Assembly: GCA_964448725.1 (NCBI GenBank)
Contig: CAYVAJ010000004.1
Span: 17,535-81,534, forward strand
From: an uncultured Gammaproteobacteria bacterium
GTDB taxonomy: Bacteria; Patescibacteriota; Microgenomatia; Levybacterales; GWA1-39-11
Length of the DNA stretch: 64,000 nucleotides
Direction: 5' to 3'
Shown: piece after piece, positions 2,922-46,245 of the stretch
How the letters are laid out: each line of letters starts with the position of its first letter
Numbering within the stretch: position 1 is the stretch's first letter
Notes under the pieces: generated by a model
Seen by the model: only the letters and a program-made list of their open reading frames with translations
Databases searched by the model: none
What the model was told of the DNA's origin: nothing
Position numbers and translations under genes: made by a program

Positions 2922-4361
2922 TTAACTACGACCATTAGTTAATTTCGGTTCCTCCTTCCAGTAAGGGTTTGCTTGTTCAAAGGTATGTGTTGTTCTATAG
3001 AGTGTTGCTTCATCAAAATGTTTACCGAGTATTTGCATACCGACCGGAAGTCCGTCTACAAATCCAGCAGGTACTGATATTCCTGGAACACCAACAAGAT
3101 TTGCATGTACAGTAAAAATGTCTGACAGATACATTTGTAATGGATCGCTTGTTTTCTCTCCTAATTTCCAAGGGAGAGAAGGAGATGATGGAGTAATCAA
3201 GACATCAACTTTTTCAAACGCTTCATCAAAATCATTTTTCAGAAGCGTTCGGACCTGCATTGCCTTTTTATAATACGCGTCATAGTATCCAGCAGAAAGG
3301 ACATATGTTCCAAGCATAATTCTTCGTTTGGCTTCTTCGCCAAAATCATTGCGTTCATTGCCATAGCGAATACCAGTATATCGTGCAAGATTTGATGATA
3401 CTTCTGCAGTTTGGATTACATAATACACTTCGATTGCATACTGGGTATGCGGAAGGGAAATATCAATTATCTCAGCTCCTTGAGATTCGTAAAATTTGAG
3501 CGCATCATGAATATGATCTTTAATACGAGAATCTAGTCCTTCAATAAAATATTCTTTCGGAACGCCGATTTTTAGTCCTTTTACTCCATTTCCAATATTT
3601 GCAGTATAATCTGGTACATCTTTTGATGGAGTTGTTGCATCCATTGTGTCTCTTCCTGCAGTAACGTTCAATACGAGCGCATTATCTTCAACTGTTTTTG
3701 TAAAGTGTCCAATAGAGTCAAGAGAGGATGCCATTGCAATCACTCCATAGCGACTGACACGTCCGTATGTTGGTTTCAGTCCGACAGTATTGGTAAAGCT
3801 TGCTGGGAGCCGAATAGATCCACCTGTATCAGTACCTGTTGCCATGAGACTCATACCGGCTGCAACAGATGCAGGAGATCCGCTTGATGATCCTCCAGGA
3901 ACGTACTCAGTATTATATGGATTTGCGGTTGCTCCAAAATCTGAGTTCTCTCCACTTGACCCATGTGCCCATGCATCAAGATTTGTTTTGCCTAAAATTA
4001 CTGCCCCTGCATCTTTTAATTTCTTGACAACTGTTCCATCGTATTGCGGGATATAGTGTTCAAGCACTTTTGATGCCGCAGTTGTCCGAATGTCTTTAGT
4101 AACAAACAAATCTTTTAATGCGACTGGAATCCCAAGCAGCGGCTTATCCTTGTCCAAGGTCCGACCTTGGTCAGCACGCAGCTTGTCTGCGGTCTCTGCT
4201 TGTTGTAGCGCTTCTTCTTCAGTTACGGTTAAAAATGCATTAATCTCGGTGTCATATTTTTCAATTTGACCAAGATATGCTTTTGTTAGCTCAACTGCAC
4301 TTATTTCTTTTGCCAGCAATTTCTTTTTTGCGCTAGCTATTGTTAAGTTTTTAGTGTCCAT
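2922..4361 (-). CDS. gatA: Glu-tRNA(Gln) amidotransferase subunit A (amidase signature family); carries an in-frame REP-like palindrome insertion
   Basis: 479 aa. Amidase signature GGSSSGS plus LLGIPVALKD motifs. The palindrome CCAAGGTCCGACCTTGG at 4154-4170 is translated in frame as QGRTLD. Confidence 0.9.
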   Translation of the reverse strand: MDTKNLTIASAKKKLLAKEISAVELTKAYLGQIEKYDTEINAFLTVTEEEALQQAETADKLRADQGRTLDKDKPLLGIPVALKDLFVTKDIRTTAASKVLEHYIPQYDGTVVKKLKDAGAVILGKTNLDAWAHGSSGENSDFGATANPYNTEYVPGGSSSGSPASVAAGMSLMATGTDTGGSIRLPASFTNTVGLKPTYGRVSRYGVIAMASSLDSIGHFTKTVEDNALVLNVTAGRDTMDATTPSKDVPDYTANIGNGVKGLKIGVPKEYFIEGLDSRIKDHIHDALKFYESQGAEIIDISLPHTQYAIEVYYVIQTAEVSSNLARYTGIRYGNERNDFGEEAKRRIMLGTYVLSAGYYDAYYKKAMQVRTLLKNDFDEAFEKVDVLITPSSPSLPWKLGEKTSDPLQMYLSDIFTVHANLVGVPGISVPAGFVDGLPVGMQILGKHFDEATLYRTTHTFEQANPYWKEEPKLTNGRS

Positions 4362-4367
4362 AGTTGT

Positions 4368-4832
4368 TTATGCGATCTTTTCTATAAAATTTACTGATTC
4401 AAAACCTTCTTCTGAGAACATGATTCCATTCTTGTAATTGTTCAGTGCTTTTTTAATATAGGAAAGAGTATTCTCAGGTAGATTATTAATATCAAACCAC
4501 TTGAGATCATCTGCTTTGTTAGGCTCTTTTATTTCAGGGTTACCTTGCCAGCTGTGTGCTTGTGCAAAGTAATCAACATATTCAAAGTTTGATTTCCTAT
4601 GCATAGCATGTACAATTTCTATATCTTTATTGTTCAAAATTATTCCTATTTCCTCTTTTGCTTCACGAATAGCGGTATCACTCACTGTTTCTCCTCCATC
4701 AAGATGACCAGCAGGAAGAGTATATTGTCCATCTTCCCATCCTGTGTTATAACGTCTTAACAATAATATTTTATGTTCTTTTTCAAGAATTATATATACT
4801 GCTGCATGAAGTGAGAACTTTTTATCTCCCAT
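4368..4832 (-). CDS. NUDIX hydrolase
   Basis: 154 aa. Nudix box GHLDGGETVSDTAIREAKEEIGI. Confidence 0.65.
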   Translation of the reverse strand: MGDKKFSLHAAVYIILEKEHKILLLRRYNTGWEDGQYTLPAGHLDGGETVSDTAIREAKEEIGIILNNKDIEIVHAMHRKSNFEYVDYFAQAHSWQGNPEIKEPNKADDLKWFDINNLPENTLSYIKKALNNYKNGIMFSEEGFESVNFIEKIA

Positions 4833-5957: not shown

Positions 5958-7340
5958 TTAAAGAATTTCCTTTCCGGTTAATATCTTTCGTAACTCAAGC
6001 ATGGCTGAGTATGTAGGGAGTATGAATGCAGTGTCTCCTTCAGGTGTCGCTTGTACTAACTCGTTAATTGCTTTTTTAGGATTCTCAAAAATTGTAACTG
6101 TAGAATTGTAATAATCCTTTTCTAGAGAATATTTCATTCGAACCGCCATGTCATATGCTCTGTCACCGGTAACAATGATTTTACCAGCGACATTTACTAA
6201 TTCTTCAAAGTCCACATCCCATATCCAAGATACATCTCGTCCATCAGGAATTCTATCATTCAAGGCAAGTAAAACAGTACAAGGTCGGACCTTGGTATTG
6301 TTTTGTGGTTGTACGGAATTTTTCAGGCTCGTACCAAGGTCCGACCTTGGTATAGTAGTCTCTGTAATAACACTGATTGATTGATTGAATCCAGCGGGGT
6401 TTTTTGAGAGGATCATAAAGAAATCACGATTTTTATAGGTGATTTTTTCTTGTCTTCCAAATGCCGAGGTAAATGACGCAAGTGATTTGCCAATCTCTTT
6501 ATATGAAATGTCAAATGCTTCTCGAGCTGTTTTTAATGCCGCTTGTAAATTGTACATATTATAAGTACCAGCAAGAACGACAGGGATAGATTCATCAATT
6601 TTATCTTTAATGTTTTCATTTGTAAATTTACAATTAGGGCAGGTATATTTTCCTAAATGGGAATATGCAATTTTTGAAAAAAGTAACTTGGTTCCGCATT
6701 GAGGACAATGAGTAGAGTCAGTATCATGGGTAGTTTCTTTTTTTGAAAAGTACTTGTTAGGAATAGAAAAATAAAATGTTTTACTCGTTGTGCTTTTTCT
6801 TAAATATCGTATCTCAGGATCATCTGCATTGAGTATAAGTTGTGTATCAGTTGTTAGCTTTTTCAGTGCTTTTTGCCAATTTCTAGCTATGGTATGTACT
6901 TCTCCATATCGGTCAAGCTGATCACGGAAAAGATTTAACAATACGATTGCGCGAGGAGTCATCTGAGATAATATGCGGGGAAGATTATTTTCGTCAACTT
7001 CAAAAATAGCCACATCATAGCGTAGTTTTCCTGTAACTGAAGCGTAGCGGATTAAGCTTGTTGCAAGTCCATTCACGAGATTTGCTCCTTCTTCGTTTTG
7101 AAAAACACGTAATCCATTTTTCTCTAAAATATGTCGTAAAATTTTAGCTGTTGTTGTTTTACCATTTGTTCCAGCAACAAGAATTATTGATAGATTTTTA
7201 CTGGATAAAAAATCCTGTATAAAGGTGGGATTTACTTGTAATGCAATATGTCCAGGCCAGGTAGAACCGGATCCAAGACCGAATTCTTTTATTACAGCAC
7301 TGGTGAATTTTCCGGCGAAAAATGAAAGTAATGTTTTCAT
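5958..7340 (-). CDS. murT: Mur ligase family protein MurT (lipid II isoglutaminyl synthase); contains two in-frame inverted REP-like palindromes
   Basis: 460 aa. P-loop VAGTNGKTTTAKIL, Cys4 ribbon CPQCGTKL...CPNC typical of MurT, and a C-terminal DUF1727-like region. Palindromes at 6279-6297 and 6332-6352 are translated as NTKVRPCT and IPRSDLGTS. Confidence 0.65.
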   Translation of the reverse strand: MKTLLSFFAGKFTSAVIKEFGLGSGSTWPGHIALQVNPTFIQDFLSSKNLSIILVAGTNGKTTTAKILRHILEKNGLRVFQNEEGANLVNGLATSLIRYASVTGKLRYDVAIFEVDENNLPRILSQMTPRAIVLLNLFRDQLDRYGEVHTIARNWQKALKKLTTDTQLILNADDPEIRYLRKSTTSKTFYFSIPNKYFSKKETTHDTDSTHCPQCGTKLLFSKIAYSHLGKYTCPNCKFTNENIKDKIDESIPVVLAGTYNMYNLQAALKTAREAFDISYKEIGKSLASFTSAFGRQEKITYKNRDFFMILSKNPAGFNQSISVITETTIPRSDLGTSLKNSVQPQNNTKVRPCTVLLALNDRIPDGRDVSWIWDVDFEELVNVAGKIIVTGDRAYDMAVRMKYSLEKDYYNSTVTIFENPKKAINELVQATPEGDTAFILPTYSAMLELRKILTGKEIL

Positions 7341-7455: not shown

Positions 7456-8349
7456 TTACATTGATCTGAGGATTTTTATTCGTTCTTCAATTGGAGGGTG
7501 AGTTGAGAACAGATTTACATACCATGATTTTTTTCTCTTACCTGATTTAAAAGGATTTTCAATATACAAGTGTGCTGTTGCAACGCTTGCTGCCTGTAAT
7601 TTGTCATCGTCAGCCGAAATTTTTTCCAGTGCTGCTGCTAGACCTTCTGGATATCGAGTGAGTAGTGCACCATCAGCATCAGCAAGAAACTCTCTTTTTC
7701 TTGAAAGCATGAATTGTAGTAAGGTAGCAGCAATTGGAGCAAGAACTGCTGCTGCGATCGCAATTATAAGAAAAAAACCATTTTGATTTCTATTTTTGTC
7801 TCCGCGTAACCAGAGTGAACGCAGGAAGAAATCAGATAGTAATGCGATTGATCCTGCTAAGATAGTAACAATTCCAATCATACGAGTATCATAATTTTTA
7901 ATATGAGAAATTTCATGTGCGATAACTCCTTCTATTTCCACTTCGCGTAATTTTTGTAAGAGCCCTGTTGTTGCGACTACTACTGCATGTTTCGGATCAC
8001 GTCCAGTTGCGAATGCGTTTGGCGAGCTGTCTTGGATAACATACAGTTTTGGCAGAGGAATACCTGCTGCAATACTCATATTCTCTGCTGCAGTATAAAA
8101 TGAAAAATTATGTTCTCGTGTTGCAGGCTTGGCATGACTCATTGTCAGAATTAATGAGTCTGAGAAATAGTACGAAATTAGGGACCAAATACCTGAAATA
8201 ATAAGGAAAATTCCTGCAACGGTAAGTCCATTATATCCTTGAGCACGGCCAATTACATAAGATACTGTTACTGAAAGAATTATAAAGAAGATAATAATAA
8301 ATATGCTTTTTCGTTTATTAGAACCAACTATATCGTAAGGAGTTTTCAT
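7456..8349 (-). CDS. htpX: M48 family zinc metalloprotease HtpX-like
   Basis: 297 aa with N-terminal TM helices and HEISHIKNYD (HExxH) motif. Confidence 0.7.
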   Translation of the reverse strand: MKTPYDIVGSNKRKSIFIIIFFIILSVTVSYVIGRAQGYNGLTVAGIFLIISGIWSLISYYFSDSLILTMSHAKPATREHNFSFYTAAENMSIAAGIPLPKLYVIQDSSPNAFATGRDPKHAVVVATTGLLQKLREVEIEGVIAHEISHIKNYDTRMIGIVTILAGSIALLSDFFLRSLWLRGDKNRNQNGFFLIIAIAAAVLAPIAATLLQFMLSRKREFLADADGALLTRYPEGLAAALEKISADDDKLQAASVATAHLYIENPFKSGKRKKSWYVNLFSTHPPIEERIKILRSM

Positions 8350-8394
8350 TATTGTACCTCTTTTCAGAATAGAGATATTGTATTATGAGTATGT

Positions 8395-8961
8395 CTAGGA
8401 AGTGAAGTCAACTTTTACGGGTTCACGTTCGCCTGGTTCTGCTTCAAAAAATTCTTCTTCTTTAAAGCCAAAAATATTAGCGATAAATACGGTTGGAATT
8501 GTTTTCAATTTAGTATTATAGGAGAGTACATTTGAATTATAGAATTGACGAGAATATGAAATCTTATTTTCTGTATCTGTCAGTTCTTCTTGTAATTGCT
8601 TGAAGTTATCACTCGCCTTAAGATCGGGATATGCTTCTGCAACTGCAAAAAGAGATTTTAATGCATCTGTCATCATATTATTCGCTTGAGCTTTTTGATG
8701 AGGGGTATTTGCTTTCATGAGGTCGGTGCGAGCTTTGGTAACTTCTTCAAATACTCCTTTTTCATGTTTTGCGTATCCTTTGACAGTCTCTACTAAATTT
8801 GGAATCAGATCAGTACGGCGTTTTAATTGTATGTCAATGCTAGAAAGTGCTTCGCGAATTCGTTCACGCAGAGTAACCAATGAGTTATAGGTGAGCCATA
8901 AAAACACTAATATTGCTACACCAATTCCAATGAGTATGAATGGGAGGCTTAAAAATTCCAT
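8395..8961 (-). CDS. lemA: LemA family protein
   Basis: 188 aa. N-terminal TM helix then the LemA-like pattern [43 protein letters not shown]. Classic LemA-HtpX gene pair. Confidence 0.6.
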
Positions 8962-9103: not shown

Positions 9104-10903
9104 TTATGAGAGTAGCCACTTTTCAAATTCTTTTACCGAATAGGTATTAAGTATGTCTTTATTTTCGCACCATCCACGGCGTGCAACTGATACGCCGTAG
9201 AACATATTATCCATATGTTCTATTGCATGGCTGTCTGTATTAATAACGAACTTAATACCATTATCTCGTGCTTGTTTGACTAACATATCAGGGAGATCGA
9301 GTCGGGTAGGCCATGAATTAATTTCCAATGCTTTATCATGTGTCTTAATAAAATCAAAGAGTGTATCCCAATCCACTTCATATCCTGCACGTTGATTGAT
9401 TAATCTGCCTGTTGGGTGGGCAAAAATTTTGGCTTTTGGATGTGAAAGGCCTTGGATGATTCTTTCTGTCATTTTTTTTCGGTCCATAGAAAATGAACTG
9501 TGTATTGATACAATTACCGCATCTACATATTCAAGGGCAGAATCATGGAGTGCAAGATTACCATCGGCAAGAATGTCTAATTCAAGCATATTAAATACTC
9601 GAACACTATATTTACTCTTAATATATTGTTCAATATGATTATTACGTCTTGACATAATAGTCTTTATTTCATCTTTAGTGTGATTTGAAATGCTAGGATT
9701 ATGTTCAGAAAATCCTATATATTCATAACCAAGCGACTCTGCTTTTTTGACATGATCTTCCATACTGTCTTTGCCCAGATCATGGCTCGGCTCTATTGGG
9801 TAATTGCTATGAATATGAAGATCACCGTTAATATTGTTTAGATCTACAAGTTTTGGTAACGTATGAGTACGTGCGCGCTCAATTTCTCCTTGATTTTCAC
9901 GAAGTTCTGGCGGTATCCAGTCAAGCCCTAAAAATTTATAAAAACTTTCTTCTGTTTTAAATTTCTTCATTTCGCCATCTTTTTTTATTAATTTTATGCC
10001 GCGTTCAGAGAGTGAATAGCCTTTTTTAAGCGCATATTCTCGAAGTGCTACATTATGAAATTTGCTTCCGGTAAAATGTTGCAGCATCGATCCAAAGCTT
10101 TCAGGAGGAAGAACAAGTAGATCGATGTGTTTACCCCCTGCTACCAAAATTGCAGCAGTTGTTGGGCCGCGTTCGATGATACGCTCAGTACCTGGATATT
10201 TCGTGAAGTACTCAAGAACAGCCTCTGAGTTATGTGATGTTACAGCAATATCAACATCTCCAATGGTTGATACCATGCGTCTGAGGCTTCCGAGTGGTTG
10301 AATCTCTATGACTTCTTTACATTTTTTCATATAGGTAAGTATTGTTTGGGAAAGAGCATATGCATAAGGGAGTACCATTCTACTTGATTTACTGACTCCT
10401 TCTTTGTATTCACTGAGTGCTCTAAGAATGTCTTTCTCACTTTTTTCACCAAAACCTGGTAGCTCTGCTATTCTTCCATCCTTTGCAAGCTTCTCTACAT
10501 CATTAAGTACGGTTTTAGGGTCTGTAAGATTGAAATTCATGACAATTTTTGCTGCTTTTTTGGGACCGAACGATGGTACATCTAGTAGAGGATATATTGA
10601 TTGCGGGATACGTGAAAGTAAGGATTCAAAATGCTCAGATTTGCCGTTTTTAAATAATTCTTCTAGATATTTTTTAATTGTTGCGCCGATCCCTTGGAAA
10701 TTATTTAACGTACCTTCACGATAGAGGTCTTGGAGTTCAATGGTTGAGTGTTCTACTGCTTCACTTGCATTTTGATAAGCAATTGCTTGAAAGCGATATT
10801 TCTTATCATTAGTGAGTGTATAGGCAACAGAAACATTTCTTAATAACTTTGCAATATCAGAGTTTGTAAATCGTTGTGCCATATCTCGATTATACAATAA
10901 CAT
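9104..10903 (-). CDS. polX: DNA polymerase X family protein with C-terminal PHP (histidinol-phosphatase-like) domain. The true start may be the second ATG at 10882.
   Basis: 599 aa. N-terminal PolX HhH region (MAQRFTNSDIAKLLRNVSVAYTL...), a nucleotidyltransferase core, and a C-terminal PHP domain (HIHSNY...). The first ATG lies within a TATAAT-like stretch, so the start may be at 10882. Confidence 0.75.
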   Translation of the reverse strand: MLLYNRDMAQRFTNSDIAKLLRNVSVAYTLTNDKKYRFQAIAYQNASEAVEHSTIELQDLYREGTLNNFQGIGATIKKYLEELFKNGKSEHFESLLSRIPQSIYPLLDVPSFGPKKAAKIVMNFNLTDPKTVLNDVEKLAKDGRIAELPGFGEKSEKDILRALSEYKEGVSKSSRMVLPYAYALSQTILTYMKKCKEVIEIQPLGSLRRMVSTIGDVDIAVTSHNSEAVLEYFTKYPGTERIIERGPTTAAILVAGGKHIDLLVLPPESFGSMLQHFTGSKFHNVALREYALKKGYSLSERGIKLIKKDGEMKKFKTEESFYKFLGLDWIPPELRENQGEIERARTHTLPKLVDLNNINGDLHIHSNYPIEPSHDLGKDSMEDHVKKAESLGYEYIGFSEHNPSISNHTKDEIKTIMSRRNNHIEQYIKSKYSVRVFNMLELDILADGNLALHDSALEYVDAVIVSIHSSFSMDRKKMTERIIQGLSHPKAKIFAHPTGRLINQRAGYEVDWDTLFDFIKTHDKALEINSWPTRLDLPDMLVKQARDNGIKFVINTDSHAIEHMDNMFYGVSVARRGWCENKDILNTYSVKEFEKWLLS

Positions 10904-11104
10904 AGAGGTTCTACGTTGGTGTTATATTCTCATTGACTGGTACTCAAATATTTGATACTATTCCGTATAGCCTCCTAGCTTCAGTTTTACTGGAGAGGTA
11001 TGGATCTATTTACTACACCAATATAATAAATTGGTTGGTTGTAATAGGACATTTCGACCAAGTAAATGGGGTCCCCAGATTAAATAAATTTGGGGAGGTG
11101 CAGA

Positions 11105-11181
11105 GGGGGTGTAGCTCAGTTGGTTAGAGCGCTTCCCTGTCACGGAAGAGGCCGCGGGTTCGAGTCCCGTCACTCCCGCCA
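11105..11181 (+). tRNA. tRNA-Asp (anticodon GTC), CCA encoded
   Basis: Manual cloverleaf: acceptor GGGGGTG/CACTCCC, D-arm GCTC-AGTTGGTTA-GAGC, anticodon arm CTTCC-CTGTCAC-GGAAG (GTC), T-arm GCGGG-TTCGAGT-CCCGT, discriminator G, CCA. Confidence 0.85.
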
Positions 11182-11400
11182 CGTCAAACGTGGCTTGCAA
11201 TAGAGCGAGTCGCGTATGACGCGAACGCACTTCGGCGCGTTACACTTGCTCAGTGCAAGTAACAAACCGAACAGGGAGAAAGTTAAGACGAGAAGTTTAT
11301 CCCGATAAACATCGGGAAGTCCCGTCACTCCCGCCACGTCAAATGTGGCTTGCAAATAAAGCGAGTTATGTCTGACGCGAATGTGTTTCGATGTGTTATT
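11163..11400 (+). repeat. Degenerate tandem duplication (about 155-bp period) beginning with the last 19 nt of tRNA-Asp
   Basis: AGTCCCGTCACTCCCGCCACGTCAAA(C/T)GTGGCTTGCAA... occurs at 11163 and again at 11318. Similarity continues for about 70-100 nt at roughly 75% identity. Confidence 0.6.
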
Positions 11401-11492
11401 TGCTTAATGCACATTATACATCGAATAATAGACTTAATTTATTCTGCCTCAAAACTGCCTATAACTTCTTGCCCAGAAGGGAGGTGTATACA

Positions 11493-12182
11493 ATGCCACG
11501 AACAAAAAAGAAATCTGAAACAAAGAAAAAAATTGATACAAAACAAAGAGCTGAGATGCTTACAGATAATCTTCGTGCTCGGATAGCTAATTTTTCCCTT
11601 TCACGTTCATATACGTCTCTTGTATATGGAATTATTACACTTATTGTGTTATTTGCATTAGGCTTTGCAGCAGTTCGACTTTTTACTCAAGAACAAACTC
11701 CTGAAATTTCACAACAGGGTGTTGATTCTACAATAGAGGAGAATAACAACGAATATGTAGTAAAAGAAGGAGAAACATTATGGTCAATCGCTGAGCAAGA
11801 GTATAATGATGGATTTGCATGGGGAGAAATTGCGCAAGCAAATGAACTTCCAGATCCAAACAATCTTGAAGCAGGAACACGATTAATCATTCCTGAAAGA
11901 ACTACTCCGGAACAAGCACAAGACAGTGAAGAGCAAGGAGAAGAAGTAAATGTAACTCCAACTGAAGATGTACCGACACCAACAGCTGTATCTGAACAAA
12001 TGCAAACAGCTGGTGAGCAAATTACTGGATCAGAATATACTGTTGTTGCAGGAGATACCCTGTGGGATATTTCTATTCGCGCATATGGTGACGGATACCG
12101 TTGGCCAGAGATTGCAGCATCAAATAATATTGTGAATCCTGATTTAATTTATGTTGGAACAACCTTAAACTTGCAGAGATAA
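11493..12182 (+). CDS. LysM domain protein (N-terminal TM anchor, two LysM repeats)
   Basis: The ORF track's longest frame starts at 11391. The ATG at 11493 is preceded by GGGAGGTG. Two LysM motifs (GETLWSIAEQEY... and GDTLWDISIRAY...) follow a TM helix. Confidence 0.7.
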   Translation: MPRTKKKSETKKKIDTKQRAEMLTDNLRARIANFSLSRSYTSLVYGIITLIVLFALGFAAVRLFTQEQTPEISQQGVDSTIEENNNEYVVKEGETLWSIAEQEYNDGFAWGEIAQANELPDPNNLEAGTRLIIPERTTPEQAQDSEEQGEEVNVTPTEDVPTPTAVSEQMQTAGEQITGSEYTVVAGDTLWDISIRAYGDGYRWPEIAASNNIVNPDLIYVGTTLNLQR

Positions 12183-12372
12183 CTTTGATGAAATAACTCA
12201 TTATCTCTGCAGTTTATGCTTGGTATTCTCTCAGTGAAGAGGGCTGTGGAGTTGAGAACTCATGTCTCAATACGGATATGTATCTGTATGTCTCACATTG
12301 GTTTATGCTACTATAATTAATACGTAGTGTAGGCGGTTCAGTGAACCTCAGAATTCATCTGCTGTGATATAT

Positions 12373-12553
12373 GCGGGTGTAGTTGAGTGGTACAATGCTT
12401 CCTTCCCCGCCTGAAATCGCTTTTGCGATGGTAGTTCAAAGGTAGAATGTCTCCTTCCCAAGGAGAAGGTTGAGGGTTCGATTCCCTTCCATCGCTCATG
12501 CATTAGCGGGCAGGCCAAGGAAGAGTTCGTGGATTCAATTCCCATCACCCGCT
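12373..12553 (+). pseudogene. Split tRNA-Gly-like gene with a 109-nt insert at the anticodon loop. Intron-containing or disrupted tRNA.
   Basis: The 5' half GCGGGTGTAGTTGAGTGGTACAATGCTTCCTTCCC (12373-12407) and 3' half AAGGAAGAGTTCGTGGATTCAATTCCCATCACCCGCT (12517-12553) together form a tRNA-Gly-like cloverleaf. The acceptor pairs GCGGGTG/CACCCGC and the anticodon stem pairs CTTCC/GGAAG. The insert ends pair GCCTG/CAGGC. The T-stem has one mismatch. Confidence 0.4.
12425..12496 (+). tRNA. tRNA-Gly (anticodon CCC), no encoded CCA; nested inside the split tRNA-Gly-like gene
   Basis: Manual cloverleaf: acceptor GCGATGG/CCATCGC, D-arm GTTC-AAAGGTA-GAAT, anticodon arm TCTCC-TTCCCAA-GGAGA (CCC), T-arm GAGGG-TTCGATT-CCCTT, discriminator T. 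Confidence 0.75.
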
Positions 12554-12893
12554 CATAGTCTCGACCTTTTTGTGAAACAAAAAGAGACAGACTTATTAAA
12601 TCATAATATACTGTTGGAGAAGTAAAACCAGCTAAAAGGCAGAATTCCATTTGTCCTCGGGTATAAAGAAGACTCTCTAGATACATATCAGGCATTCAAA
12701 CGTGAGAAGCATTGTAAAACTTCCTGGGGTCGTAGGCTATTAAAAAAGTTACTTAACAATCAATAAAATGAAGGTCCACTTCTAGTGGAAAGAATAGAAT
12801 AATTTTGCTACTTGATTTTTTTACAAAATGCTTACTATTATGATGTAGGAGGTGCTTTTAAAGCAAAAAAAACAGCTTTACACCTAATAAATA

Positions 12894-15800
12894 ATGCACT
12901 CCCGCAAAAAAAAGTTTAAAGACTATTGGGAATTCGCTGAACTACAAGACAAAAAAGTCCGCATTGCTATTGCCATCTCTGCTTTAGGACTTTTGCTCTT
13001 TATCGCCTTCGCACTTACTTTTCCTTTTTATGATAATCTCTTTACTCGATTATTTCCGAAATCTCCTTCTCTTGCGGACGTAACAGCTCCAACAGTTGTA
13101 CAGTCAAATACTGCTACCGTTTCTTCTGGGAGTGATGTGTCTATTTCATGGGGGAGTCCAACATCAAATGGAAATTTCCTCATTGCAGTATTAGCAGCGC
13201 AGAGCGGAGATGAAGCATTATCGATATCTCAAGCGCCACAAGGATGGACATTAGTATCGGATACTATTAATGAGGAAGTAAGACAGTGGGTATATGCCTA
13301 TGCGAATGCTCCAGAACAGAGTGGAGAAGTAAAATTCACCCTCTCTTCAGGAGTAAAATCATCACTCGTGGTTGCAGAATATAAAGATGTTGCAAAAGAA
13401 AATGCTATAGAAACTCAGAATTCTTTAGTAGGAAATAATGATTCTCCCACTGGATCTGTTGATCCAAATACTGATTATAATTTAGTAATTGCAGCAGTAA
13501 GTTCGGTTGTAACAAGCAGTGAAAGCGCCAGTTTTAATAATGCTACTAATGACTTTTCTCTTGTAGGTCAAACATCAACAACAGGAGATGCTGTTAATAT
13601 CGCAACTGCATTGTTTAGTTCGTTTGTTGCCAATCAAGAACCTGTTAATAATTCCGTAACTATTGGATCAGGTACTCAATGGATACATACAATGGTAGCT
13701 ATAAAGCCTGTTGTACCTATCCCGACCTATACTCCTATTCCCAGTAAAGAACCAGAACCAACACCAGAGACAGAACCTGAGTTTTTACTTCAAGGATTAG
13801 ATCCTGAAAACACACAACAGAGTGGTCTGAGAAGTCTTGCGCTTGAGAGTACACAAATTTCGGGTACAACCTATTATGTAGATTGTCAAAACGGAAATGA
13901 TAGTAATAATGGAAGATCAGAGGGTGCTGCATGGAAATCATTAAATAAAATTAATAATGCCACATTAAATCCAGGAGATGGAATTCTATTAAAACGAGAT
14001 TGTTCATGGACTGGAACCTTGGATGCTGCGTGGAATGGTACTGCTCAAGAACCTATTACAATCGGTGCATATGGAGAAGGTGTGCTCCCTACGATTAAAT
14101 ATGACGGATCAAAAGGCGGTGGACCAGCTGTTAAAGTATCAGGATCATATGTCGTAATTGATAGTCTGAAAGCTACACTGACCAATCCCAATAGAAGTTC
14201 TGATTGTACATTAGCAGATGGGCAAAAACAGCATTTTGGTTATTATCAAGGCTTTAATTTATCTGGTCATCATCTTACCCTGCAAAACTCAGAGGCTACA
14301 GGCAATTCGTTGGGAGTTTTCACTACAGATTCCAGTCACCATAATAAAATACTGAACAACCATATCCATCATAACGATGGTTTATGGAGAATTGGCCCAA
14401 TTCCTCCAGGATCAATGGGTGGTATGGGTATGAATTTGCATGGCGATGATCATGAAGTTGCACATAATTTCTTTGAAAAAAATGATGCAAATTGTGATCC
14501 CCCAGACCATACGCATAGAGGGTATAGTGCAGCAATTGAGCTATATAATGCTAGTCGTGCGCACGTACATCATAATAAAATGGTAGGACATCGAAAGCAC
14601 TTTGAAATGGGTAAGAATAGCGATGAAATATCTGACGATAATATCTTTGCCTATAATTTAATTGTCAGTAATTTGGCAAATGCAAAAGGTCCTAATATTC
14701 ATGGCGCAGGAAATAAATTCGGTCCTGTTAAAAGGACAACAGTAGTCAATAATACTATATATCTTGTGGGTTCAGGGAATACTCAAGCACTCAATTGTGG
14801 GTGTACAGATGGCGCAACAATACGAAATAATATATTTTGGGCAGAAGAAAAAGTCGCATTTTTTAACGGTACATACACAGAATCTAATAATATTTACTGG
14901 GATAGTGATGGAAATCCAAATGCTCAAAATTTGAGTTTGCACGCTACTTCAAAAAAGACTAATCCGCAGTTTGTGAAGGCTGCTGTCAATGATGGTGACT
15001 TTCGTTTGAAAGCAGGGAGTCCTGCAATTGATGCCGGTATTTCAGTGGGATATGATTTAGACGTTGAAGGAGTATCTGTTCCACAAGGCTCAAAAGTTGA
15101 TATCGGTGCAATTGAATATACTGGTCAGGTTGTAACAACTCCAACCCCAACTGCAAGTACTGTTACCCCTACTCCAGGCGTTCAAGAACCATTCAGTGGT
15201 TCACGGATTTCGCTTCCAGGTACCATCCAAGCAGAAGATTTTGATAATGGCGGTGCTACTGTTGCATATGTTGATAATGATACAGGCAACAATGGGAATA
15301 TATATAGACAAACAGATGTTGATATTGAGGCTACGACTGACACTGGGGGAGGGTATAATCTTGGCTGGACTCGGCCAGGTGAGTGGGTAGAATATAGCGT
15401 TAATGTCTCATACTCAGGTTCTTACACGATAGGAACACGAGTAGCATCAAATGGAGGCGGCGGAGTATTTCATATAGAAGTTGATGGTACAGATGTAACT
15501 GGTCCAATGACCGTGCCAAATACAGGAGGTAATCAAATTTGGCAGACAGTTGAAAAAACAGGTGTACAGCTTACTGCAGGACAACATATTGTTCGTCTCT
15601 CATTTGATAATAATGGCGCAACTCAAGGTGTAGGCAATTTTAATTATATGACCTTTACTTTTGATCCTGGTCCTCAAACGCCGTACACAGGTACTCCTAT
15701 TTCTCTTCCAGGCATAATACAAGCTGAAGACTTTGATAATGGGGGTGTTATGGCTGCTTATTTTGATCAAGATGCAGGCAACAAGGGTAATGTGTATAGG

Positions 15801-18800
15801 GAAACAGATGTTGATATAGAAGCAACGACTGACACTGGTGGAGGGTATAACCTTGCTTGGATGTGGCCTAATGAATGGGTAGAGTATACAGTAAATGTAA
15901 CAGAAACAAGTACATATACCGTTGGAGCACGAGTCGCCTCCAATGGAGGTGGGGGAGTGTTTCATATAGAAGTTGATGGGCAAGATGTAACCGGTTCAAT
16001 GACTGTCCCGAGCACAGGAGGAAATCAGGTTTGGCAAACAGTTGAAAAAACCGGAATTCAATTAAGTGCTGGACAGCATATTATCCGATTGTCAATGGAT
16101 AGCAGTGGAGCACAGCAAGGAATTGCCAATTTTAATTATCTAGAATTTACTCAAGACACATCTACTAGTCCAGTACCATCCACCTCACAGGAATATACAT
16201 TATCCGGATCAGTATATGTCGATGTAAATAGAAATGGGGTAAAAGATACTGATGAATTAGGCCATAACGGAGCTGAGGTTACGGTATCAGGCGGATTATC
16301 AGCTAGTACCAATGCATCCGGGCTTTATACATTAACAGTTCCTGCTGCAGTATATACTGTTACTATTACCATACCTGATGGATATGAGGGAACAACTACA
16401 AATCCATTGTCTATTTCAGTCTCTGCAAATACTTCGGCGAACTTTGGTATTGCCCCAACAGCTACTGGAGGTAGAACAAATTCTGTCTTCACAGTGAATG
16501 CAGCTAAGACAGGTACTGAATTGAATGGACAACCTTTTCAAGTTGTTGGTATTCGTGTATCAAATGCACTTATTAATGACGCTAAAACACAACAACTCAT
16601 AGATAACCTTGATGTATTCAGAACTTATGGTATTAATACCGTTAGCGTTTTCTTCCAAGGTTCACGATTTGGTGACATCAAAGGCTATAGAGAAGATACA
16701 ACACTAAATCCTACCTACGCTGCTCGGATGGCACGAATTATTGAAGAAGCTGATAAACGTAAGATGGTCGTTCTAGTGGGAGTTTTGTATTATGGCGATG
16801 CAACCTTTGCAAAATGGGATAGTTGGGGACAAACTGAGGCAAACAGTGCAGTTGCTAATACTGTTCAGTGGCTCAAAGATAATAATTATCGCAATGTATT
16901 TATCGATGTTGATAACGAACAAATGTCACCGTTTGATAGTCAAAAACTCATTGCAGCTGGAAAAGCAGTTGATGCATCCTATGTAATTGGTTCTGGTGGC
17001 AAAATAACGCCATCAAATGCTGACCTATCTTTGCACCAAGGAGGCAAAAATATAACCGGTAAACCATATATTGAATCTGAAGGAACACCGCAAGGATATT
17101 GGGGTGCATATAGCAGACAGTCAGGAGACACACAATATCGAAATATTGGCATTTATACGAGTGATTTAAAATCTGCATGGTTGTCTGAAACTTCTAGTTT
17201 ATTGAATCAAGGAAAAGGATATATGGGTGCATCAACCTGGTTACAGGCCGACCTTCCAGAGGGACCAAATCACATACCTGGTGGAAATGGGACATCAGCA
17301 GATCCTGGGATTAAATTCTGGTTAGAGCATGTAAAGAGTTTGGTTGGGCCGTATGAGCCATCAGGTATTGGAGAGGAGACTACTCCAACCCCAACTCCAA
17401 GTGCTATTACCCCTACTCCTACTCAACCACCAACTGGGGGAACAGGGGCATTTTTGGAAAACAACGGTCAGCTAGTTATTGAGGTAGAGGATTATAATGA
17501 TATTTTTCCATCTACATTTAATAACTATACACAAACACACAATTGGGAAAAGAAAACAAATATTCCAGACTATAGTGGAAGCGGATTTATGCATAATATA
17601 CCAGATGAGCGAGGAGAGGATGGAGTAGGTCCTAATTCACCTCGAGGAAAAGGTGGACCTGAAATGCGGTATCCAATCAAGATATCAACTCCTGGAACAT
17701 ACAATGTCTGGGTAAGAGGGTATACTACGGGAGGAGAGTCAAACGGAGTACATATCGGGGTTGATGGGGTAATGACAGGTACAGAAGCTGGAGCTTCAAA
17801 TATGTCAGGGTTTAGACCTAAAGAATCGTGGATTTGGGAAAGTGCAAGAAAAGAAGGATATACGCTCCCTGCAACTCTCAATCTTACTGCTGGTTATCAT
17901 ACACTTAATGTCTGGGGAAGAGATGATGGATTTAGAATGGATAAAATAGTATTACGAATAGGAAGTGGTGTCCCATCAGGGACAGGACCTGCCCAGAGTG
18001 CGCGAGAAGCCATACCAACTCCAATAATTACACCAACTCCCACACCTGTGGTTACCACAACTCCCACACCTACTCCAAGTGTTCAAGCACCATTTACGGG
18101 AACTCCTATTTCGTTACCTGGAACAATCCAGGTAGAAGACTTTGATAATGGTGGTGCAAATGTTGCGTACTTTGATACGTCAGCAGGTAATAACGGTGGA
18201 GTATATCGAGATACAGATGTTGATCTTCAAGCTACTACTGATACTGGAGGAGGATATGGTCTTGAGTTTACAAGATCTGGAGAATGGTTAGAGTACACTG
18301 TAGATGTTGCTGAGGGCGGTACTTATGATATTGGTGTACGTGTTGCCTCTAAAGTAGTTGGTGGTGCATTCCATATAGAGATTGATGGGCAAGATGTAAC
18401 TGGGCCGATGTATGTACCAAATACTGGTGATTGGCAAACATGGACAACAATCGAGAAAACAGGTATACAGCTTACTGCAGGAGAACATGTAGTCAGATTA
18501 TCATTAGATAGCAGTGGTGAGCAGGCAGCTATTGGAAATATCAACTATATTACATTCACGAAAGTTGTCACAATTCCTACCTATACACTCTCAGGTACTG
18601 TATATGTAGATGCAAATAATAATGGTATACAAGATACAGATGAGGCTGATTATGCAAATGCAATTATTGAACTTTATGAAGGACCTGAAGCGACAGATAT
18701 TCCTTACCACACAGCAGAAACCAATACAGCCGGAGCGTATACTTTCAACACATTAAATCAAGGAGTATACACAGTATCACTTCTAATTCCTGATGGATAC

Positions 18801-21800
18801 AGTGTTACTACAGCTATCCGTCAAGTAGTCTCGCTTACAGCAGATACTATAGTGAATTTTGGTATCGCATCCACACAAACACCTACTATTACTCCTACTC
18901 CTGTAAGTCCTTCAAATCTTCTAAAGAATGGAGGTCTTGAGAGTAGCACTACTGTTTGGGGGTTATATGGGGGTGCAAGTATAATGCAAGGTACTTCACA
19001 TGGTGGTAGTAAAGCTATTCGTGTAGGTAATGCAAGTGGTGGGGGTGAATCAGGTGCCGAGCAAGCTGTTGCTGCACAGCCAGGAAAGACATACTCACTT
19101 ACTGCCTGGGGTATGATGAGTAATTCAGCTCAGAGTGATAAAGGCGCTGTGGGTATTAAATTTAAGAACAGTGCAGGAGATGTTCTTGGTAATGAAACAT
19201 CCATCTTTATTCCTGAGACTGATTGGACTCAGAAACAAGTGTCTGCAATTGCACCTGCTAACACGGCAAGCGTTGTAACTTATGTATATAAAGAAGTGGG
19301 AGATAATACTTTCTTATACATTGATGACTTTACGCTTACAGAAAGCGGAGAAGTTACTACTCCAACCCCAACATTGACAAATACTCCGACACCTACTGTT
19401 GCACAAAATACACCGACTCCAACGCCAGTACAACTATCTGATTTAGTAGTTAGTGATATAACATGGAGTCCATCTAATGCTACTGTAGGACAAAATGTTA
19501 CTTTTGGTGCTACCTTAAGAAATATTGGATCAGCTGCAACTCCTGATGCAACTGCCCATGGAGTAGCGTTTTATGTGAATGGAGTAAAAGTATCTTGGTC
19601 GATAAATCATAATGCGTCTATTGCACCAGGTGACTCAGTAACAGTCACTGCTAATGGTGGTCCTGAAGGTTCACGATTCTGGACAGCGACAGCAGGTACA
19701 CATGAAATTGAGGCAGTAGTTGATGAGCCTGGCAGGATTACGGAAAGTAATGAGGAAAATAATACTGCAAGCAACCAATTTACCATTGTTGCTGCTCCTA
19801 CGGTTACTCCGACTCCGACATCTGTTCCTACTTACACAGTAGATGGAACTGTATATGTAGATACAAATAAAAATGGTGTGCAAGATACAGATGAGGCAGG
19901 GTATGCAGATGCAGTTGTTATGATATCAACTAACCCTGAAACAGCAGGTATAAGCGATGAAAATGGGCGTTTTATTCTTACTGGAATAAATCAAGGAGTA
20001 TACACAGTTACTCTTTCCGCACCTAATGGGTATACTATCACGACTTCCAATCCAATTGAAGCAGTTGTAACTGCAAATACTACAATCAATTTTGGAATCG
20101 GTCTTATTCCAACTCCAACCCCTACAGCTCCTGTTATAACGCCTACATTAACAACAACTCCTACCCCTACTGCAACAGCTACTCCGATTCCAACTGTTAC
20201 TCCTCTTCCTACGGGTACTCAGTCAGTAACATACTCGGTCCCATGGACAAGTGAAGATGTACAAGAAACAAATACATCATTTACGGTAAATGACACCACT
20301 CTTCGAATTGGTGGATGCGGACAGACAGCTTGTTATACTGGTCTTCGGTTTACGAATATTAACCTGCCTAAAGGTTCTATAATTAATTCTGCATATGTAG
20401 AGTACAATGCAGCCCAAAGTAACTCACTTGCAAATGTAGCGGTAGAGATTGCAGGACATGATTCGGATAATAGTTCGCTTTTCTCTTCATCCAATAAACC
20501 TTCACAAAGAACACTTACAGCTGCTAAAGTGACTCCTCAAACTGATACAGTAGTTGCTGCTAATCAGTGGTATCGTTTAGGTAATATCTCATCAATAGTG
20601 CAAGAAGTCATAGATAGAGACAATTGGCAAACTGGAAATAGTATTTCACTTATTATTCGTGCTACATCTCCAACAGAGCAAGATACAGGAATTCTTGCAC
20701 ATAGTTACGATGGAAATTCTGAGAGAGCACCACGCTTAGTAATTATATATAGTAGTCCGATAGGCGGAGAAGAACCAACAAATACTCCTGTCCCTATTAC
20801 AGAGCCTACTGAAGCACCTATTCCAACGTATATTCTTTCAGGTACTGTCTATGTAGATACCAATAAAAACGGCGTAAAAGATATAGAAGAATCAGGTCAA
20901 AGTAATATAACAGTATCTCTGTCAAATGGAGCATCGGTTTCAACTGATGCACAAGGTAGATATCAATTTACTGATTTAATCCAAGAACTCTATACTGTAA
21001 CTGCAACAGTACCAAATGGATATACATTGACTACTCAGTCATCAATCCCTGTATCACTTATAGCTGATACAAGTGTACACTTTGGAATGGTACAAGTACC
21101 AATAGCCACGGTAACTGCAACATCTGCACCAACCCCTACCCCTATTCCATGTTCACTTGTATCAGCCAAATGGCAAACAACCAATAATCAAATAGATGAA
21201 GGTGAGATTGTAGGACTTGAAGTTATAACCTCAGGAAACTGTGTTGGAGAAGAGCTGGAGTTTGAGGTACGAGAGGACGATGGAATTATGGGGTCTGATG
21301 CAACAAATATTATTCCAGCAACAGTACCAATAATCGGAAATAACGCACAGACTTCATGGATAGTTGAATGGCAGCAGGATTGTATGGGATTTGCACTTTG
21401 CCAAACTCCGGAATATTACTATATTGTTAGAATTGTGGGAACCACAACTGAGATACGCTCAACAAATCCAACACTTAAAGTGCAGCGTACCAACAAAGCA
21501 CGGTTTGTGACTATTCCTCATGTGGATGTGACTCAAGATACTGTGAAAATTACATGGAAGACAAGCCATGATATGTCATCACAGATTAGCTATGGATTAT
21601 CTGCAGAATCCCTTGTAAGTACAGATGAGATAAATACCAATATACGAGCAGCTGATCATGCTATTACAATTGACAACTTACTTCCTTGTACTGCGTATCG
21701 GTATCAGGTACGTTCACGGGAAATAACTGGTGATATGGTAGAGAGCCCTTTTGCTCAATTTATAACAAAAGGTTGTGAAGGAAACTCGTCAGTACTTGCA

Positions 21801-45682: not shown

Positions 45683-45722
45683 GATGGTTTTTAGTAACAT
45701 TTGAATGGAGTATGTAGAAGTG

Positions 45723-45795
45723 TGAGCCGACTGGGACTCGAACCCAGAACCAAAAGCTTAAAAGGCTTTTGCTCTACCGATTGAGCTATCGGCCC
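45723..45795 (-). tRNA. tRNA-Lys (anticodon TTT), no encoded CCA
   Basis: Manual cloverleaf on the reverse strand: acceptor GGGCCGA/TCGGCTC, D-arm GCTC-AATCGGTA-GAGC, anticodon arm AAAGC-CTTTTAA-GCTTT (TTT), T-arm CTGGG-TTCGAGT-CCCAG, discriminator A. Confidence 0.8.
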
Positions 45796-45841
45796 GCCCG
45801 CCATGCAAGACGAGCTTGCGAGGCGTTGCGGGCAGGCCCGG

Positions 45842-46105
45842 TTACCTCTTTACAAGTACGTCTACATTTCCGATGCGAGATTTTAAGTATCGACGTCCAA
45901 ATCCTGTTTTGAAATAGTGTTCACGCTGTATAGCGCTTTCAAGGCTTAAACAAGCTTCATAGTACACCAGTTTCAATGGACGTCTATGTTTAGTTGATTC
46001 AACTAAACCATCGGTATGTTTCTTGAATCTTTTCCTTAAGTTATCGGAATGTCCTATGTAAAATCTTGTGTCTTTAAGACTGAACAATACATATGTATAG
46101 AACAT
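45842..46105 (-). CDS. GIY-YIG nuclease family protein (small YhbQ/UPF0213-like)
   Basis: MFYTYVLFSLKDTRFYIGHSDNLRKRFKKH carries the GIY...YIG motifs. The ORF track frame extends 13 codons further upstream, to 46144. Confidence 0.6.
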   Translation of the reverse strand: MFYTYVLFSLKDTRFYIGHSDNLRKRFKKHTDGLVESTKHRRPLKLVYYEACLSLESAIQREHYFKTGFGRRYLKSRIGNVDVLVKR

Positions 46106-46245
46106 ATAAGATTCAATAATCCATATTTTACCAGACTTACGCACAGTAAATCAATTCAAATGTATGAAACAGGTAAAATATCTTGACTTGCTATATATTC
46201 TTGCGTAATCTTAAATTAACAATTGATGAAAGGAGGTGAAAAATT

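Follow-up and report, generated by a model that had tools for sequence, protein, structure and literature searches.

A complete tRNA-Gly(CCC) gene within the anticodon loop of another tRNA-Gly(CCC) gene in a Levybacteria genome, probably brought in by a hairpin-ended cassette

How does a complete tRNA gene come to lie within the anticodon loop of another tRNA gene of the same specificity? The question is raised by positions 12373-12553 of a 64,000-nucleotide stretch of bacterial DNA (contig CAYVAJ010000004.1 of GenBank assembly GCA_964448725.1, positions 17,535 to 81,534; hereafter the window), where the two parts of one tRNA-Gly(CCC) gene flank a 109-nt insert that holds a second tRNA-Gly(CCC) gene. 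An earlier note on this DNA had left two readings side by side, a tRNA carrying a large intron of archaeal bulge-helix-bulge (BHB)-like geometry or a tRNA gene disrupted by a tRNA-bearing element. The latter agrees with the existence of a syntenic uninterrupted allele, with insert ends that belong to a family of hairpin elements, and with the recurrence of such nests, their outer halves decaying, in other genomes. The former would be difficult to reconcile with the lack of a BHB register, with a G53A change that breaks the G53:C61 pair, and with degenerate outer shells elsewhere. From these comparisons it seems probable that the insertion of a cassette at the DNA level disabled the outer tRNA-Gly(CCC) gene and supplied its replacement, and that the insert would not be a spliced intron.

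The default mode of ARAGORN, without introns, reports the inner tRNA-Gly(CCC) alone, at 12425-12497. This gene, which occupies 12425-12496 on the plus strand, as do all parts of the nest, is canonical, lacks an encoded CCA, is presumed functional, and scores 68.7 bits with the Rfam tRNA model. When introns are allowed, ARAGORN finds a further tRNA-Gly at 12373-12554, the anticodon loop of which holds an insert of 109 nt; the program drops this outer gene solely for its overlap with the inner one and reports it in full once the inner gene is masked. A run with introns allowed was the check proposed in the earlier note, and the note's description of a 109-nt insert holding a complete, different tRNA-Gly(CCC) at 12425-12496 stands. 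The outer 5' part (12373-12405; nt 1-34) consists of the acceptor strand GCGGGTG, the D arm GTTG-AGTGGTA-CAAT, the anticodon stem CTTCC, and U32, U33, and C34, and the 3' part (12515-12553; nt 35-73) continues with CCAA, GGAAG, the variable loop AGTTC, the T arm GTGGA-TTCAATT-CCCAT, the acceptor strand CACCCGC, and the discriminator T, so that the outer sequences to either side of the insert read ...CUUCCUUC and CCAAGGAAG.... In the cloverleaf formed by the two parts, seven of seven acceptor pairs (GCGGGTG/CACCCGC), four of four D-stem pairs, and five of five anticodon-stem pairs (CTTCC/GGAAG) are present, in agreement with the acceptor and anticodon stems given in the earlier note, and the T stem retains four of its five pairs, with A53 (12533) unpaired opposite C61 (12541). 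An nhmmer profile built from 57 distinct tRNA-Gly(CCC) genes of Levybacteria and other Microgenomates matched the halves separately, at 12373-12407 (E=1.5e-5) and 12515-12554 (E=1.1e-4) in 1.46 Mb searched, and the halves originally proposed, 12373-12407 and 12517-12553, are right within the ambiguity of a C-run at the junction. The C-run allows four registers for the insert, three of which give the anticodon CCC and one GCC, the last being the choice of ARAGORN. We placed the insert at 12406-12514, between nt 34 and 35 (TTC^CCAA), from other copies of the insert family, and rejected the Gly(GCC) call for the outer gene in favor of CCC because of the cassette boundaries in those copies and the intact CCC allele described below.

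The inner tRNA, which is complete, has a sequence identity of only 72% with the outer one, and the insert without the inner tRNA amounts to 37 nt. At its ends (CCCGCCTG... and ...GCATTAGCGGGCAGG) the insert matches both arms of a GC-rich hairpin element of 35-40 nt. The cassette opens with the left arm CCCGCCTG (12406-12413), which pairs with the right arm GCGGGCAGG (12506-12514) in the minimum-free-energy fold; this fold joins CCGCCUG to CGGGC(A)GG, with a 2x2 internal loop and a single A bulge. Pairing of the insert ends had been predicted, and it holds, whereas the pairs then given, GCCTG/CAGGC, are not the ones used by the fold. Between the arms and the inner tRNA lie a leader, AAATCGCTTTT (12414-12424), assigned by reading the sequence and by comparison with the empty elements described below, and a trailer, CATGCATTA (12497-12505), the counterpart of the 3' linker of those elements (AGCAAT or AGCATT), assigned by comparing GCATTAGCGGGCAGG with AGCATTGCGGGCAGG in L094, L060, and copies from IMG/VR (L-numbers are the labels of the compared loci or contigs). 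The ATCGC of the leader is able to pair with GCGAT at the start of the inner tRNA, in the same position as the inner stem of the empty hairpins. No open reading frame (ORF) lies within 12406-12514. RNAfold recovered the outer cloverleaf neither from the spliced outer sequence nor from the full 184 nt; it commonly misses the cloverleaf of tRNAs, and the result was not used as evidence. A 115-aa ORF on the minus strand (12348-12695), antisense to both tRNAs, has no Pfam match and is called as a gene in the public assembly L088, but it is almost certainly spurious.

The outer gene exists in uninterrupted form in other genomes, as a comparison with related genomes, also proposed in the earlier note, revealed. 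When metagenomes were scanned with a 23-nt query from the outer 5' half, eight loci emerged, and in L188 and L193 an uninterrupted tRNA-Gly(CCC) matches the joined outer halves at 70 of 72 positions; synteny with the window extends over HtpX-LemA-PolX, tRNA-Asp, LysM, and tRNA-Gly in L193. The outer 5' part is identical to that of the L188 and L193 genes, and the sole differences, G53A and G57A, both fall in the 3' part. Deletion of 12406-12514 restores UUCCCAA exactly, meaning that the insertion is precise, without target-site duplication. Among 61 distinct intact relatives, G53:C61 is present in 60 and replaced in the remaining one by a compensated A:T; A53 opposite C61 is the only departure of the outer copy from positions conserved in at least 95% of these relatives, and the inner gene shows no such departure. 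These sequences present an intact empty-site allele, a precise 109-bp insertion, and what appears to be the beginning of decay in the gene that it interrupts.

The nearest relatives, whose PolX proteins are 73-78% identical, each have one plain tRNA-Gly(CCC) at the locus, and the inner gene is identical to the sole tRNA-Gly at the locus of the closest of them (L085; PolX 78% identical), in which neither outer halves nor insert flanks were detectable. A MAFFT alignment had hinted at a degenerate 5' half and leader in L085, but this candidate was dropped as not significant: 915 and 1527 of 2000 shuffles reached the local-alignment scores, and ranking against 64 other loci was likewise non-significant. 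In other metagenomes, two tRNA-Gly(GCC) genes (L186, 8821-8895; L187, 1950-2024) have a body near-identical to that of the outer tRNA-Gly(CCC) of the window and share its D arm and TTCAATT T loop, which suggests, from sequence, that the anticodon may switch between Gly isoacceptors in these lineages.

The ends of the cassette also occur without a tRNA. The empty elements are 35-40 nt long and have the form (C)CCGCCTGC, a small variable stem-loop, AGCAWT, and GCGGGCAGG, with the right end AGCAWTGCGGGCAGG; in the cassette, the complete tRNA takes the place of the small stem-loop. The left arm also opens hairpin elements in L021, L023, L043, L060, and L094 and cassettes in L081 and L061, and the exact 9-mer of the right arm terminates the cassettes of L035, L047, and L061. 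Empty copies are found in the loops of tRNA relics, namely the D loop (L023) and the T loop at TTC^GATT (L021 and L060), as well as in non-tRNA sequence (L043 and L094). The window itself holds one, CCGCCATGCAAGACGAGCTTGCGAGGCGTTGCGGGCAGG (45798-45836; plus strand), identified by pattern scans and sequence, and GCGGGCAGG occurs exactly twice in the 64 kb, in the cassette and at 45828-45836 in this empty element. The family as a whole consists of multiple dispersed copies with complementary termini and no coding capacity, two of them in the window, others in L021, L023, L043, L060, and L094, and many in IMG/VR. The IMG/VR contigs have 48-66% G+C and contain near-identical hairpins in intergenic positions, often several per contig; the copies of L023 and L127 are identical at 34 of 35 positions. 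Apart from the inner tRNA, Rfam (E<=10) gave no family for the insert, and none for the hairpin in the IMG/VR loci.

Some further features of these hairpins were recorded. The IMG/VR contigs (L096-L175) are phage-like and do not look like members of the candidate phyla radiation (CPR); their 35-nt hairpin reads, for example, CCGCCTGCAACGCTTCGCGTAGCAATGCGGGCAGG, and copies lie at 4251-4285, 4500-4534, and 509-543 of L105 and at 4147-4113 of L127. One copy directly precedes a ribosome-binding site, and neither a tRNA nor a GIY-YIG gene is nearby. Relic outer 5' halves often have an extra small GC-rich hairpin in or beside the D loop (L094, 4532-4590; L058, about 6605-6680; L043, 9860-9937), such as CCGCCAACAATAAATAGTTAGGCGGG in place of AGTG in L094, as if relics gather hairpin insertions.

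Nests with such ends recur in other Microgenomates for Gly, Val, Asp, and Thr. They have as many as four layers, and their outer shells have decayed to different degrees; in every nest the inner and outer tRNAs are the same isoacceptor. In L047, a tRNA-Val(CAC) lies within a tRNA-Val(CAC) at position 37/38 between the ends CCTGCCTGCC...GGCGGGCAGG, and deletion of the cassette gives a canonical tRNA; in L035, an intact tRNA-Gly lies within a degenerate one, and the insert ends in ...GGCGGGCAGG. Three successive 5' fragments, each followed by a CCGCC-type arm, precede a complete tRNA-Gly at the contig end of L081, and a series of 3' halves that corresponds to them is found in L061. In L043 (Asp in Asp) and L058 (Thr in Thr), the outer acceptor strands match each other and the relic D arms contain additional hairpins, and L010, L013, and L044 retain single degenerate halves only. 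The cassette of L061 is about 800 bp long and contains an ORF, and its distant arms still pair (CCCGCCAAA/TTTGGCAGG). Pairing of the arms is kept through two-sided changes, with T-A in L047 at a place where C stands opposite A in others, CTG/CAG in L094 versus CCG/CGG in L057, and AAA/TTT in L061. In a systematic test, each of 173 tRNAs was deleted with 0-45 nt of either flank and ARAGORN was rerun; a junction-spanning tRNA emerged at six, of which four are nests, including that of the window, and two are artefacts from an adjacent intact tRNA, compared with none at 300 random positions. As to the L061 cassette itself (within 7950-8900), it lies between a D-loop-cut 5' fragment of tRNA-Gly and its matching 3' half, and inside it are a whole tRNA-Gly(CCC) gene and an ORF that encodes a small protein with a membrane anchor, not a GIY-YIG nuclease; its 5' fragment and left arm are almost identical to those of L081, and the inner tRNAs of the two loci are considerably different.

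Small genes for GIY-YIG nucleases accompany tRNA genes in these organisms. On the minus strand of the window, an ORF for a GIY-YIG nuclease of 100 aa (45842-46144; Pfam PF01541, E=5.8e-14), the empty CCGCC...GCGGGCAGG hairpin in reverse orientation, and tRNA-Lys(TTT) (45722-45795) stand head to tail in 45722-46144, with the hairpin between the nuclease gene and the 5' end of the tRNA and no spacer before the latter; no tRNA-Lys relic was found around this segment. In 1.4 Mb of related loci, where there is about one tRNA per 8 kb, 12 of 14 small GIY-YIG genes lie at most 160 nt from a tRNA gene. L094 and L057 share the order of an outer tRNA-Gly 5' half (to nt 34), two hairpins, a GIY-YIG gene, and a complete tRNA-Gly; a GIY-YIG ORF of L094 lies at 4195-4467. 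Many tRNA genes have perfect duplicates of tRNA ends beside them, several times with a GIY-YIG gene lying between. These duplicates break off in the D loop near nt 17-21, at nt 34/35, or in the T loop from nt 57 onward. In the window itself, the last 19 nt of tRNA-Asp and about 60 nt of flank (11163-11242) are repeated at 11318-11398, 155-156 nt downstream, with 97% identity over the first 38 nt and 73% thereafter and with the breakpoint in the T loop. Perfect duplicates of tRNA-Asp 3' ends starting at nt 57-60 were seen at no fewer than seven other loci.

The anatomy of the locus, the uninterrupted allele, the shared ends, the recurrence across genomes and isoacceptors, and the decay of outer shells are matters of direct observation, and a mechanism that would account for them can be considered as follows. 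A resident tRNA-Gly(CCC), of the type that is intact at the same locus in other Levybacteria, would have been split between nt 34 and 35 by a 109-bp cassette (12406-12514) with the hairpin arms CCCGCCTG ... GCGGGCAGG and a tRNA gene in place of the inner stem-loop. Transcription of the inner gene might then start at the upstream promoter and pass through the outer 5' half, and RNase P together with 3' processing would free the inner tRNA, to which CCA would then be added, while the outer gene would be a relic that is starting to decay, as G53A suggests. We infer that the inner tRNA is the sole functional one and that the cassette moves as a unit, possibly by a nuclease acting in trans, for which the tRNA-linked small GIY-YIG genes, also present inside equivalent nests, are candidates, or by the machinery that spreads the hairpin element, with tRNA-gene loops as its preferred targets. 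Insertion would cost the cell nothing because the cassette brings a working copy of the tRNA that it destroys; layered, Russian-doll nests would follow because the replacement copy presents the same loop target again; and the same-isoacceptor rule would follow because selection tolerates only insertions that make good the loss they cause in genomes that apparently have a single gene for that tRNA. More tentatively, and as a proposal that is plausible but somewhat short of probable, Microgenomates might harbor an undescribed class of small mobile cassettes that enter tRNA loops (D, 34/35 or 37/38, and T), carry a full replacement of the same isoacceptor instead of splicing, form Russian-doll tRNA genes by successive invasions, end in the arms of a 35-nt hairpin found across phyla, and are driven by tRNA-linked GIY-YIG nucleases or by a hairpin-specific enzyme.

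Several observations weigh against this mechanism or against its generalization. In or beside the cassette of the window there is no transposase or recombinase gene, and no target-site duplication was found at any precisely mapped insertion, and therefore the mobility of the cassette is deduced from recurrence alone. There is no nuclease gene in or beside this cassette either, its neighbors being the genes for a LysM protein and a giant surface protein; the cassette would have to be a non-autonomous derivative because it holds no ORF while the nests of L094 and L057 hold a GIY-YIG gene. In 720 kb of non-CPR contigs, no GIY-YIG gene was found near the hairpins, so that the hairpin has no obligatory link with the nuclease. 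Patterns with fixed arms were used in part to define the hairpin family, and the uniformity of arms among empty copies is therefore in part a matter of ascertainment; for the same reason, arm covariation among the empty copies was set aside as uninformative. In addition, the tRNAs of different cassettes are lineage-specific and do not represent one spreading sequence. The inner gene is of the type of the closest relatives (L085, L094, and L005) and the outer gene of the type of distant Levybacteria (L193; PolX 57%), a kinship that, as read from the sequences, is opposite to the simplest picture of a foreign cassette in a native gene. Finally, the outer gene is only two bases from an intact allele, and its sequence by itself is compatible with continued function.

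This last point would agree with a rival reading in which the 109 nt are a protein-spliced intron, archaeal-like or of a new bacterial kind, that is cut at the base of the CCGCCUG/CGGGCAGG helix, with ligation of the exons and production of both tRNA-Gly from one transcript. The paired insert ends, which extend the anticodon stem, would suit such an intron, as would the near-intact state of the outer gene (70 of 72 positions shared with a functional allele) and the insert positions seen here and elsewhere (D loop, 34/35, 37/38, and T loop 56/57), which are scattered like those of archaeal non-canonical introns; the rRNA genes of CPR bacteria also have many short insertions at stem-loop tips that are neither group I nor group II introns (PMC11270868). 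Enumeration of all junction registers and bulge offsets, made with no positive control, however, gave no BHB motif with four of four central pairs and at least 2 bp on both sides; the best BHB-like register has three of four central pairs (CCUU/CAGG) and a 1-bp outer helix, and it disrupts the register of the anticodon stem. Nor is there a group I core: Rfam gave no Intron_gpI match at E<=10 in 10500-14000, whereas the same tool scores the introns of L082 and L083 at 83.6 and 75.2 bits, and the insert matches no Rfam family other than that of its inner tRNA. G53A breaks a pair that is kept or compensated in all 61 relatives, the outer shells of L035, L010, L044, and L058 are clearly degenerate, equivalent inserts of 300-800 bp carry protein genes, and the nested tRNA is always the isoacceptor of its host, which splicing does not need. 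We consider a spliced intron quite improbable, and an integrase-type element of the kind discussed below is also disfavored in that the 109-bp insert has no recombinase ORF and the inner tRNA is not a partial att-like repeat, because it is complete and only 72% identical to the outer gene.

A one-off repair accident that involved no dedicated element, in which the tRNA-Gly locus of a relative, copied illegitimately or by template switching, filled a break in the anticodon loop, with flanks acquired by chance, would dispense with a mobility gene and with target-site duplication. The junctions lie in a C-run that offers possible microhomology, the inner gene is identical to that of the L085 organism, a relative in the same sample (SRR7082976), and the partial 3'-end and flank duplication of the neighboring tRNA-Asp would mean that tRNA loci here are recombination-prone. 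The flanks of the inner gene, however, are unlike those of L085 and match the arms and linker of the hairpin family in other genomes, other isoacceptors, and non-CPR contigs, and arm pairing is maintained in cassettes of 109 to about 800 bp, meaning that an accident fits the locus of the window and not the ends shared across genomes and isoacceptors; we regard this explanation as unlikely, though less so than splicing. An assembly artefact that joined the tRNA-Gly loci of two strains via a shared inner tRNA is the least credible of all, even though two related Levybacteria with an identical inner tRNA are present in the same sample and the Logan contig L089 stops within the inner gene (position 12454). 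L088, a Logan contig assembled from a different run (SRR7082982), is 100% identical to the window over 11159-13033 and spans the whole nest and both flanks with no mismatch, and because this contig is independent the nest is not an assembly chimera. The organism of the window is present in runs SRR7082966, SRR7082976, and SRR7082982. The outer halves also fit each other perfectly in the acceptor (7/7) and anticodon (5/5) stems, which is unexpected from a chimera, and nests of the same design exist in many unrelated assemblies.

The interpretation of the insert as a cassette that replaces the tRNA it interrupts invites comparison with several known systems. Integrative elements such as phages and genomic islands resemble it in that insertion into a tRNA gene is harmless when the incoming DNA restores a working gene, and in that tRNA fragments are left as direct repeats, which are seen in L094, L018, L071, L073, and at the tRNA-Asp of the window; such elements, however, reach kilobases in length, code for an integrase, and make good only a portion of the gene, whereas the cassette of the window, 109 bp long and without an ORF, comes with an entire tRNA of divergent sequence and stays enclosed by the two halves of the old gene. 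REP/REPIN sequences, miniature inverted-repeat transposable elements (MITEs), Rickettsia palindromic elements, and mitochondrial GC clusters are likewise GC-rich imperfect hairpins, comparable to the 35-40 nt element in an AT-rich genome, with several ORF-less copies that sometimes lie inside structured-RNA genes. The present hairpin differs from them in being near-identical between CPR genomes and high-GC non-CPR contigs, in preferring the loops of tRNA genes, and in occurring also in a version with a complete tRNA gene in place of the inner stem-loop. The nest has in common with archaeal BHB introns and with split or permuted tRNA genes short structured inserts at canonical and non-canonical loop positions and halves that reconstitute a cloverleaf, but the insert of the window is bacterial, lacks a BHB motif, and contains a full tRNA of the same isoacceptor, and the outer halves of such nests decay.

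GIY-YIG nucleases link the nests to two further precedents. SegB, a free-standing GIY-YIG homing endonuclease in the tRNA gene clusters of phages T4 and T6, cuts tRNA genes at RAWTSGAAC and drives duplication and inheritance of the neighboring tRNA region (PMC13096335, citing Brok-Volchanskaya 2008); we read this motif as T-loop DNA. The likeness lies in a GIY-YIG gene beside tRNA genes and in duplicates of CPR tRNA ends with breakpoints in the T and D loops and at 34/35, while the predicted CPR nucleases have only 90-100 aa and consist of the catalytic domain without the DNA-binding extension of SegB. Furthermore, the cassette of the window has no nuclease gene, and SegB gives tandem amplification and not a tRNA within a tRNA. 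In the rRNA genes of CPR bacteria, insertions that encode GIY-YIG nucleases and are neither group I nor group II introns have been described, together with many short (<200 bp), ORF-less insertions of unknown type at the tips or bases of stem-loops (PMC11270868). The organisms, the nuclease family, and the preference for loops are those of the tRNA nests, but these insertions lie in rRNA and bring no replacement gene. Recent work on the tRNA introns of Patescibacteria describes group I introns only, in tRNA-Asp and tRNA-Asn at position 35/36 of the anticodon loop (PMC13011429); the phylum and the insertion into the anticodon loop are shared with the present case, and the 109-nt insert differs in having no group I core. 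Two of the compared loci (L082, 8834-9093; L083, 2247-2529) have a tRNA-Asp with an anticodon-loop group I intron, the Intron_gpI scores of which are given above, and they represent the class described for Patescibacteria. Text searches of the literature found no description of a tRNA-in-tRNA cassette or of the hairpin. We have filed the cassette of the window as akin to tRNA-gene-restoring insertions, short palindromic mobile repeats, and nuclease-linked tRNA turnover, and as a member of no single one of these families.

As to its genomic setting, the locus lies in a window of 33-41% G+C in the order HtpX, LemA, PolX (minus strand), tRNA-Asp, LysM protein, tRNA-Gly locus, and a surface protein of 3206 aa. 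The homologs of PolX are annotated as Candidatus Levybacteria or Patescibacteria, and the order PolX/tRNA-Asp/(LysM)/tRNA-Gly(CCC) is kept in dozens of Microgenomates genomes. A phage origin of the locus was considered and rejected, since megablast of 11000-13500 against 50,697 phage records gave no match, and the neighboring genes PolX, LemA, HtpX, and MurT and their homologs place the window in Candidatus Levybacteria. The ORF for the 3206-aa protein (12894-22514), directly downstream of the tRNA locus, encodes repeated modules that resemble carbohydrate-binding and SdrD-B domains, with Thr/Pro-rich linkers between them and an N-terminal membrane anchor.

Selfish insertions in essential genes are known to become harmless to their hosts by self-splicing, as introns and inteins do, by splitting, as in split inteins, or by the partial restoration of the target that integrative elements bring about. 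To interrupt a tRNA gene and at once bring a full spare copy of it would, if this is what the cassette does, be a further solution, and the present findings point to a way, so far undescribed, in which DNA inserted into tRNA genes does no harm there. Such a cassette would also explain the relic tRNA halves around working tRNA genes in CPR genomes, the tRNA sequences of single loci that do not track the phylogeny of the flanking genes, and the failed and spurious ORF calls at nests, such as the 115-aa antisense ORF. The finding draws attention to a 35-nt hairpin, without an assigned function, that is conserved from CPR bacteria to high-GC phage-like contigs. The nests are, in addition, a natural experiment on the turnover and horizontal replacement of tRNA genes in organisms that are single-copy for most tRNAs.

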